Assembly (NCBI RefSeq): GCF_024700885.2
Contig: NZ_CP117016.1
From: Escherichia coli
GTDB lineage: Bacteria > Pseudomonadota > Gammaproteobacteria > Enterobacterales > Enterobacteriaceae
DNA length: 64,000 nucleotides
Strand: one strand, 5' to 3'
Part shown: piece after piece, positions 48,478-49,288 of the stretch
Position numbering within the stretch: the stretch's first letter is position 1
Layout: every line of letters starts with the position of its first letter
The notes under the pieces: model-generated
Database searches by the model: none
What the model saw: only the letters and a program-made list of their open reading frames with translations
Told to the model about the DNA's origin: nothing
Translations under genes and position numbers: made by a program

Positions 48478-48612
48478 TTATCTCCTGACGCCTGGGCAAA
48501 AAAAAGCCCCTCGATTGAGGGGCTGGGAATGGGTGATCAACGGGAAGAAAAACGGCAGGCCAGCGTCTTTTTTCAGACGCGGTAAGACAAAATGTCGAAC
48601 ACACTGAACCAT
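48478..48612 (-). CDS. pyrL: pyrBI operon leader peptide PyrL
   Basis: 44-codon ORF (MVQCVRHFVLPRLKKDAGLPFFFPLITHSQPLNRGAFFCPGVRR); coordinates from ORF-track arithmetic. Confidence 0.8.
   Translation of the reverse strand: MVQCVRHFVLPRLKKDAGLPFFFPLITHSQPLNRGAFFCPGVRR
48497..48524 (-). terminator. pyrBI attenuator (rho-independent terminator hairpin within the leader)
   Basis: On the minus strand, GCCCCTCAATCGAGGGGC followed by TTTTTTTT. Confidence 0.6.
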
Positions 48613-48892
48613 ACATCCTCCCGGCAAATTGTCCGGCATTATACTCATAGCCAGAAGCGGTGCAAGCATTTGATGCAATATTTTGTCAGCGCAAACGGTT
48701 TATTTGAATTAAAAGTCAAAATGTATGCATTTTTATTTGCTTTGATTCTGGAGGAGAACTGTCGTTCGGTATCAATAATTGCAGACATTTCCTGCTTTTT
48801 TCTTTTTCACTTTCACGCAATCAGATATGCATTTTATTCCATTCATCCGACTTATACGGCGGAGTGTGAAAACGAACGGCTAACACTATTGC

Positions 48893-49288
48893 TTACAGCT
48901 CAGGGATGCGCGCTATCACTTTAATTTCAAAATCAAAGCCTGCCAGCCAGGTAACGCCCACCGCCGTCCAGTTTGGATAAGGAGGGGCGCTAAATATTTC
49001 ATTTTTGACCGTCATGATGTCTTCAAATTGTTTTTCCGGATCGGTATGAAAGCTCGTAACATCAATGATATCGTCAAAAGTGCATCCCGCGGCAGCTAGG
49101 GTCGCATGCAAATTATCAAATGCCAGTCTGACTTGTTGCTGAAAATCGGGTTCTGGTGTTCCGTCCTCTCGACTTCCTACTTGCCCGGAAACAAACAGCA
49201 AATCGCCGGAACGAATAGCCGCAGAATAACGATGTTCAGCATACAGTGAATGTCGGCCAGCAGGGAAAACAGCGGTTCTTTCTACCAT
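48893..49288 (-). CDS. yjgH: RidA/YjgF-family protein YjgH
   Basis: 131-aa ORF recognised as YjgH. Confidence 0.85.
   Translation of the reverse strand: MVERTAVFPAGRHSLYAEHRYSAAIRSGDLLFVSGQVGSREDGTPEPDFQQQVRLAFDNLHATLAAAGCTFDDIIDVTSFHTDPEKQFEDIMTVKNEIFSAPPYPNWTAVGVTWLAGFDFEIKVIARIPEL

Follow-up and report, generated by a model that had tools for sequence, protein, structure and literature searches.

The AT-rich interval between pyrL and yjgH of Escherichia coli is very probably the pyrBI upstream control region joined to a non-coding yjgH 3' flank, with its 110-codon open reading frame a chance frame

For the pyrBI (aspartate transcarbamoylase) operon of Escherichia coli, the literature has established two controls that act downstream of the start site, UTP-sensitive reiterative transcription and UTP-sensitive attenuation, the latter through the leader pyrL and a hairpin. 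The initially transcribed region of pyrBI, 5'-AATTTG, is the site of UTP-sensitive reiterative transcription (PMC7039003). A second described system, the carAB operon, shares with pyrBI the carbamoyl-phosphate link, a PUR box of 16 bp lying upstream of the promoter and a pair of 18-bp ARG boxes with a 3-bp spacer; at carAB the centre of the PUR box is at -128.5 of P1, PurR bends the DNA, and the ARG boxes overlap the -35 hexamer of P2 and exclude RNA polymerase. The canonical ArgR operator consists of two 18-bp imperfect palindromes 3 bp apart. ARG box positions that do not overlap the promoter occur at weakly regulated targets, and PurR or ArgR sites upstream of the -35 hexamer are unusual where repression is strong. 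At pyrBI itself, a PurR ChIP-chip peak over pyrL-pyrB-pyrI, stronger with adenine, was reported by Cho et al., who counted pyrL/B/I among the genes under direct repression by PurR but assigned no motif to the peak. In the EGRIN 2.0 model, Brooks et al. predicted a PurR-like element and an ArgR-like element that overlap, at -79 and -94, respectively, from the pyrL start, and they stated that ChIP-chip data for PurR and ArgR validate both elements, neither of which was in RegulonDB at the time of their paper. The regulatory content of the AT-rich DNA upstream of pyrL is already in the literature, at the level of genome-scale data. To our knowledge, this PurR/ArgR layer at pyrBI has been predicted and seen by ChIP-chip but never dissected there.

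The DNA analysed here is a stretch of 64,000 nucleotides of E. coli (the window), and the K-12 pyrBI (pyrLBI) control region is this very locus: a query of 601 nt around the open reading frame discussed below is 96.7% identical to a K-12-derived genome, and the TATAAT hexamer, the AATTTG start, the pyrL leader and the rho-independent attenuator are common to both. Nothing essential differs from K-12; there are point changes only, including one in the -35 hexamer (TTGCAC in the window, TTGCGC in K-12) and others in the flanks of the second ARG-box-like site. The same query has matches in 5,424 of 5,426 complete E. coli genomes, and beneath the match only pyrB, pyrL and yjgH are annotated; the same genes are annotated in MG1655. 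In the window all three are on the minus strand: pyrB at 47539-48474, pyrL, encoding the 44-codon leader peptide of the operon, at 48478-48612 (with the Pfam family PyrBI_leader on record for its product), and yjgH, a member of the RidA/RutC family and the upstream neighbour of the control region, at 48893-49288. The intergenic region between pyrL and yjgH is 280 bp long. The first-pass annotation had described the segment 48680-48890 as AT-rich, which it is, having a GC fraction of 0.355 (35.5%) against 0.507 (50.7%) for the whole window; this places it in the lowest 4.6% of 211-nt windows by GC, as one of nine such troughs in the 64 kb.

Transcription of the operon runs along the minus strand and begins at a sigma-70 promoter in which the -35 hexamer TTGCAC (48665-48660; TTGATC in other genera) is separated by a 16-bp spacer from the -10 hexamer TATAAT (48643-48638), with transcription starting at the A at 48630, the first base of an AATTTG sequence (48630-48625) that is conserved across loci. 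These elements were read directly from the sequence. A strict scan for sigma-70 promoters reported none on either strand, a blank explained by the actual -35 hexamer, which matches TTGACA at only three of six bases. A GGGAGG ribosome-binding site precedes pyrL on the minus strand. The attenuator was located by a terminator scan at 48524-48497 as a G+C-rich hairpin (48524-48505) with a stem of eight pairs, six of them G-C, and then a T run, TTTTTTTT; it is kept in all of the Enterobacterales loci that were compared. All four elements of a pyrBI-type UTP-sensitive leader (TATAAT, a start in AATTTG, a leader open reading frame, and an attenuator before pyrB) are thus present at 48643-48497.

Conservation upstream of this leader was assessed in 80 pyrB loci from species-representative Enterobacterales genomes, anchored on the -10 hexamer, with a MAFFT alignment of the 79 distinct sequences. 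The well-conserved columns are those of the -10 hexamer (TATAAT columns at least 90% conserved), the -35 hexamer, the start region and a AACCGTTTGC core that lies upstream of the promoter; a TGTGCAT motif and an ATTCA arm are more weakly conserved, and there is no conservation across genera beyond about -95. From Escherichia to Yersinia and Pantoea the AACCGTTTGC core keeps its position, whereas its flanks are not conserved.

The AT-rich stretch starts a short distance upstream of the -35 hexamer, and the conserved core within it belongs to a PUR-box-like 16-mer, AATAAACCGTTTGCGC, on the minus strand at 48689-48704 (-74 to -59 from the start site). Scored with a PurR matrix built from the 28 ChIP-derived PurR sites tabulated by Cho et al., this 16-mer reaches 13.9 bits, the second-highest score among the 127,970 positions of the window and a value towards the bottom of the span of the training sites themselves (11.8 to 24.9 bits, median 20.0). 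Compared with the 16-bp palindrome ACGNAAACGTTTGCNT, its right half is near-perfect and its left half degenerate, which still places it among PUR-type sequences. The best match to the matrix lies at the identical offset from the -10 hexamer in nearly all of the 79 distinct Enterobacterales promoters, and in Klebsiella and Raoultella the PUR boxes are near-consensus, at 20 to 22 bits. The previously reported PurR ChIP-chip peak at pyrLBI presumably ends about 25 bp short of the 16-mer, after a conversion of coordinates that we take to be correct. The two elements of the EGRIN prediction correspond to window positions of about 48691 and about 48706, the first inside the PUR-box-like 16-mer and the second inside the ARG-box-like site next to it.

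Two ARG-box-like sites follow upstream on the minus strand. The first, TTTGACTTTTAATTCAAA (48703-48720; -90 to -73), has one mismatch in its core, carries C where the highly conserved A6 is expected, and overlaps the PUR-box-like 16-mer by 2 bp; the second, AGCAAATAAAAATGCATA (48724-48741; -111 to -94), has three mismatches in its core and lies 3 bp upstream of the first. The stretch 48703-48741 has the layout of a canonical ArgR operator, two 18-mers with a 3-bp spacer. In the 64-kb window, the 14-nt ARG core with at most one mismatch occurs only here and in the argI operator (at 54477), and tandem cores 21 bp apart with at most four mismatches in total likewise occur only at these two places; the tandem register was found in none of 200 random windows and in none of 5,000 null sequences of the same local composition. 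The argI operator (54477-54511) has the same two ARG cores 21 bp apart but is nearer to consensus, with two mismatches versus four at the pyrBI site, and it occupies the region 28-62 bp ahead of the argI start codon, whereas the pyrBI boxes lie about 75-110 bp upstream of the transcription start. With both boxes upstream of the -35 hexamer (-111 to -73), the pyrBI site lacks the promoter overlap of strongly repressed operons. Unlike those of carAB, the candidate operators of pyrBI stand upstream of a single active promoter and overlap each other.

The phylogenetic range of the ARG-box-like sequence is narrower than that of the PUR-box-like sequence. An ARG core with at most two mismatches is present at the offset of the first box in about 29 loci, several of them perfect, from Escherichia, Salmonella, Citrobacter, Kosakonia, Enterobacter and relatives; the perfect cores at this offset include those of Citrobacter and Salmonella, and in some loci the best core is at the offset of the second box. 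No ARG core was found in the Klebsiella, Raoultella, Serratia, Yersinia and Pantoea loci. In about 11% of E. coli genomes similarity to the window is lost upstream of position 48647, and two such genomes that were opened have, in place of yjgH, an arginine-deiminase cluster ending in an ArgR-like gene. The promoter-proximal 80 bp of this arginine-deiminase haplotype are only about 60% identical to the window, yet they have both AACCGTTTGC and a perfect ARG core in register. In the sampled E. coli alleles, polymorphisms in the first ARG-box-like site affect its central W4 positions or its flanks, and all 12 alleles that were scored have identical TGACT...ATTCA arms; the divergent E. coli-group genome L004, which is outside those 12, has TGATT in place of TGACT.

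It could be argued that the ARG-like and PUR-like sequences arose by chance in AT-rich DNA and that the stretch upstream of the promoter is a functionless spacer, an UP-element or curved DNA. The deviation of both sites from consensus, their position upstream of the promoter, where repression would be atypical, the lack of a reported motif under the pyrLBI peak of Cho et al. and the absence of the sites from RegulonDB when EGRIN appeared are all compatible with such an origin. Chance does not readily account for a tandem ARG register absent from all 5,000 sequences of equal local composition, for a PUR core held at one position in 79 promoters between flanks that are not conserved, or for the retention of AACCGTTTGC and an in-register ARG core by two E. 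coli haplotypes that differ here by about 40%; the EGRIN authors, moreover, regard independent ChIP-chip data as validating the PurR-like and ArgR-like sites. A chance origin is accordingly improbable, though it is the strongest of the alternatives to a regulatory region.

[quoted passage not shown] Simple occlusion of the promoter is unlikely because both candidate operators are upstream of the -35 hexamer. Synthesis of aspartate transcarbamoylase would thereby be tied to the supply of purines and arginine, as at carAB, and the 2-bp overlap could make the ArgR hexamer and the PurR dimer bind either competitively or cooperatively. We give about an even chance to the proposal that these overlapping operators constitute a conserved dual-input switch on aspartate transcarbamoylase synthesis, of which the PUR part is order-wide and the ARG part confined to the group of Escherichia, Salmonella, Citrobacter, Enterobacter and Kosakonia.

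Beyond the second ARG-box-like site lies a distal AT-rich spacer (48742-48892), the 3' flank of yjgH, which is lineage-specific: its only similarity elsewhere is a single 62-nt stretch in an E. coli-group genome that has no yjgH. A tblastn search returned nothing to suggest that the spacer derives from the ArgR-like gene of the other haplotypes, and that idea was rejected. This spacer, or the AT-rich block as a whole, might instead be the source of a small RNA or of a small protein encoded on the minus strand, expressed, for example, by read-through from yjgH or from the old in vitro promoter P1, which was not located in the interval. Read-through RNA is conceivable, since no convincing yjgH terminator was found before the pyrBI promoter, where the only candidate is a weak five-pair hairpin at 48795-48781, and several open reading frames of 21-47 codons exist. 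However, the folding of the AT-rich block is unremarkable (z = -1.6); no Rfam family reached threshold, and the sub-threshold matches fall almost entirely on the leader and attenuator rather than on the AT-rich block; and none of the mini-open reading frames of 24-47 codons on either strand is conserved among E. coli alleles, between which the frames differ in both length and sequence. As the distal DNA is, in addition, not conserved outside the haplotype with yjgH, a small RNA or small protein is very improbable. The roughly 150 bp of the distal spacer, in which no function was found, are best described as a lineage-specific non-coding 3' flank of yjgH.

The plus strand of the interval contains an open reading frame of 110 codons with an ATG start (48592-48924; 4,472,513-4,472,845 in MG1655), which covers the entire intergenic region and overlaps, in antisense orientation, 21 nt at the start of pyrL and 32 nt at the end of yjgH. 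The first-pass annotation was correct both in noting these two overlaps and in seeing no obvious ribosome-binding site: the sequence upstream of the ATG, GCGGTAAGACAAAATG, has no Shine-Dalgarno-like run (GGAG or AGGA). The length of the frame is no evidence for a gene, since there are 66 open reading frames of 90-150 amino acids in the window, 35 of which are shadow frames inside long genes. Its codon log-likelihood ratio of -0.19 bits per codon is close to the median of the shadow frames (-0.17), whereas the 28 long genes of the window all have values of at least 0.08, with a median of 0.38. Among 13 aligned E. coli alleles the frame is open in ten and interrupted in three: in O157:H7 and strain G3/10 an AAA-to-TAA change makes codon 41 a stop, and the frame of L004 is broken by stops and an indel. 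Of the 4,759 genomes in which this DNA is present, at least 277 contain the exact 76-mer bearing the O157 stop; in 603 other E. coli genomes the query finds a match on its pyrB/pyrL side only, so that most of the open reading frame has no counterpart there. When 12 of the 13 alleles were scored for polymorphism, with L004 excluded, the variable sites in the intergenic part of the frame were distributed over codon positions 1, 2 and 3 as 12, 6 and 7, and the single changes divided into 4 that were synonymous, 23 that were non-synonymous and 1 that created a stop, the expected synonymous fraction being 0.21 in what is a small sample. Neither synonymous changes nor third positions are in excess among these 12 alleles, and there is no sign in them of purifying selection on the protein. 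The mutation that creates the stop is a W-to-W change inside the first ARG-box-like site, the arms of which are unchanged in these 12 alleles; the constraint thus follows the operator and not the open reading frame.

The distribution and history of the frame point in the same direction. A search of 5.8 billion proteins found relatives only in Escherichia and Shigella, all of them labelled hypothetical, and the full-length relatives have no Pfam domain; conservation of the frame across species, which had been proposed as a check, therefore goes no further than these two genera and is incomplete even within E. coli. In databases the exact protein appears as a hypothetical protein or as 'ORF_o110' of E. 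coli K-12 MG1655, and as nothing else. Database versions of 60 amino acids were considered as truncations and rejected as such, the 110-codon frame being intact in those genomes and an internal GTG having been picked by the gene callers. The open reading frame is missing from the RefSeq annotation and from NC_000913.3 (MG1655), where the b-numbers skip from b4246 (pyrL) to b4248 (yjgH); in two older papers an open reading frame at this place goes by the name yjgG. From the gap in the b-numbers, the name of the deposit and the older papers, ORF_o110 is probably the withdrawn yjgG/b4247. It resembles the withdrawn 'phantom' open reading frames of the first annotation of E. coli K-12, frames of about 100 codons across an intergenic region that were called on length alone and later removed. 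Annotated at first and since withdrawn, it is an ordinary case. One ribosome-profiling supplement of Stringer et al. has no entry at 44725xx-44728xx, and none for pyrL or yjgH. The locus is also not mentioned in a paper about overlapping genes in antisense orientation.

The possibility that ORF_o110 (probably yjgG) is a real, young, Escherichia-specific protein gene antisense to the pyrBI promoter, to which the open ATG frame in most sampled alleles, the many deposits by gene callers and the signal obtained with yjgG-specific primers in a macroarray and RT-PCR study might be thought to lend weight, is largely refuted already and hardly credible, given that the region probed in that study is also within the yjgH and pyrBI transcription units, so that its signal is no proof of a plus-strand mRNA, and that the lack of a Shine-Dalgarno sequence and of a plus-strand promoter in the strict scan, the shadow-like codon usage, the non-coding pattern of changes, the interrupted or missing frames, the lack of homologues beyond Escherichia and Shigella and the removal from both annotations all tell against it. 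The 110-codon frame is almost certainly a chance open frame, non-coding and without function.

The interval is very probably the upstream control region of pyrL-pyrB-pyrI together with the non-coding 3' flank of yjgH. The first-pass annotation, which had judged it more likely to be regulatory DNA than a gene, was right in that choice, as the open reading frame fails on codon usage, selection, intactness and spread, and the DNA has the pyrBI promoter and conserved PurR-type and ArgR-type sequences. Its account of the whole block as regulatory can be kept for the conserved portion of about 60 bp at 48689-48741 and not for the lineage-specific 150 bp or so at 48742-48892.

The case confirms that a long open reading frame across an intergenic region should not be annotated. 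The cross-species footprint sets the limits of the functional control region at about -111 and +1, and provides support at the level of sequence for PurR and ArgR inputs at pyrBI, which until now have rested on ChIP-chip data and a computational model. Such inputs would connect the metabolism of pyrimidines, purines and arginine at the carbamoyl-phosphate branch point.

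Similarity to the window ends just upstream of the -10 hexamer of the pyrBI promoter (at window position 48647 and upstream, as compared with positions 4214-4791 of locus L002 and 4213-4790 of locus L003, from two other genomes) in 603 of 5,424 complete E. coli genomes, or approximately 11%. Two such genomes (L002 and L003) are virtually identical to the window downstream of about -12 but only approximately 60% identical over -12 to -85; the boundary between the haplotypes falls within the pyrBI promoter itself. In the two of these genomes that were opened (L002 and L003), yjgH-bdcA-bdcR is replaced by an arginine-deiminase-type cluster that contains genes for an ArgR-like repressor and a YfcC-family protein, argF and arcC.

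Among the loci L004 to L017, the gene upstream of pyrL and the pyrBI control region is highly variable. The window and K-12 have yjgH in this place; one genome of the E. coli group (L004) has bdcA directly upstream, without yjgH; E. albertii, E. coli E69 and Klebsiella have a divergent tabA/yjgK beside argI; and Salmonella and Citrobacter have an ArgR-like gene with a stop codon that adjoins the ARG box. The annotation of the commensal strain G3/10 gives yjgH as a pseudogene with a frameshift (L092, 794-1188).

Three other AT-rich troughs of the window (11403-12490, 51359-53497 and 55527-56735), with GC content down to 0.26-0.30, are deeper than the AT-rich block of the pyrBI control region and may be horizontally acquired DNA; one of them covers a yjgL-like ORF (51516-53387). 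The best tandem ARG-box match in the window (54477-54511, two mismatches) is located 28-62 bp upstream of a 334-codon ORF on the minus strand (53445-54449) that appears, by position and length, to be argI, and therefore this pair of ARG boxes is presumably the classical argI operator. The highest match to the PurR matrix in the window (AGGTCACCGTTGGCGT, 17803-17818, minus strand, 14.5 bits) falls within a long plus-strand ORF (16341-18074) and is probably due to chance.

The stretch that separates the PUR box from the -35 hexamer of pyrBI carries, in most Enterobacterales promoters, an AAA(A/T)TGTGCAT-like motif of moderate conservation, which may be an UP-element-like sequence or the site of another factor; in the window, this motif reads AAAATATTGCAT (48673-48686, minus strand, about -56 to -43 from the transcription start). 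The pyrBI promoters of Klebsiella, Raoultella, Pluralibacter and their relatives (L017, L020, L022, L027 and L036-L039) have a near-consensus PUR box of 18-22 bits that is 6 bp nearer to the promoter, have no ARG box, and have an initially transcribed region of GTTTTGCC or GATTTGCC rather than CAATTTGCC. In these genera, the same pyrBI promoter is differently wired.
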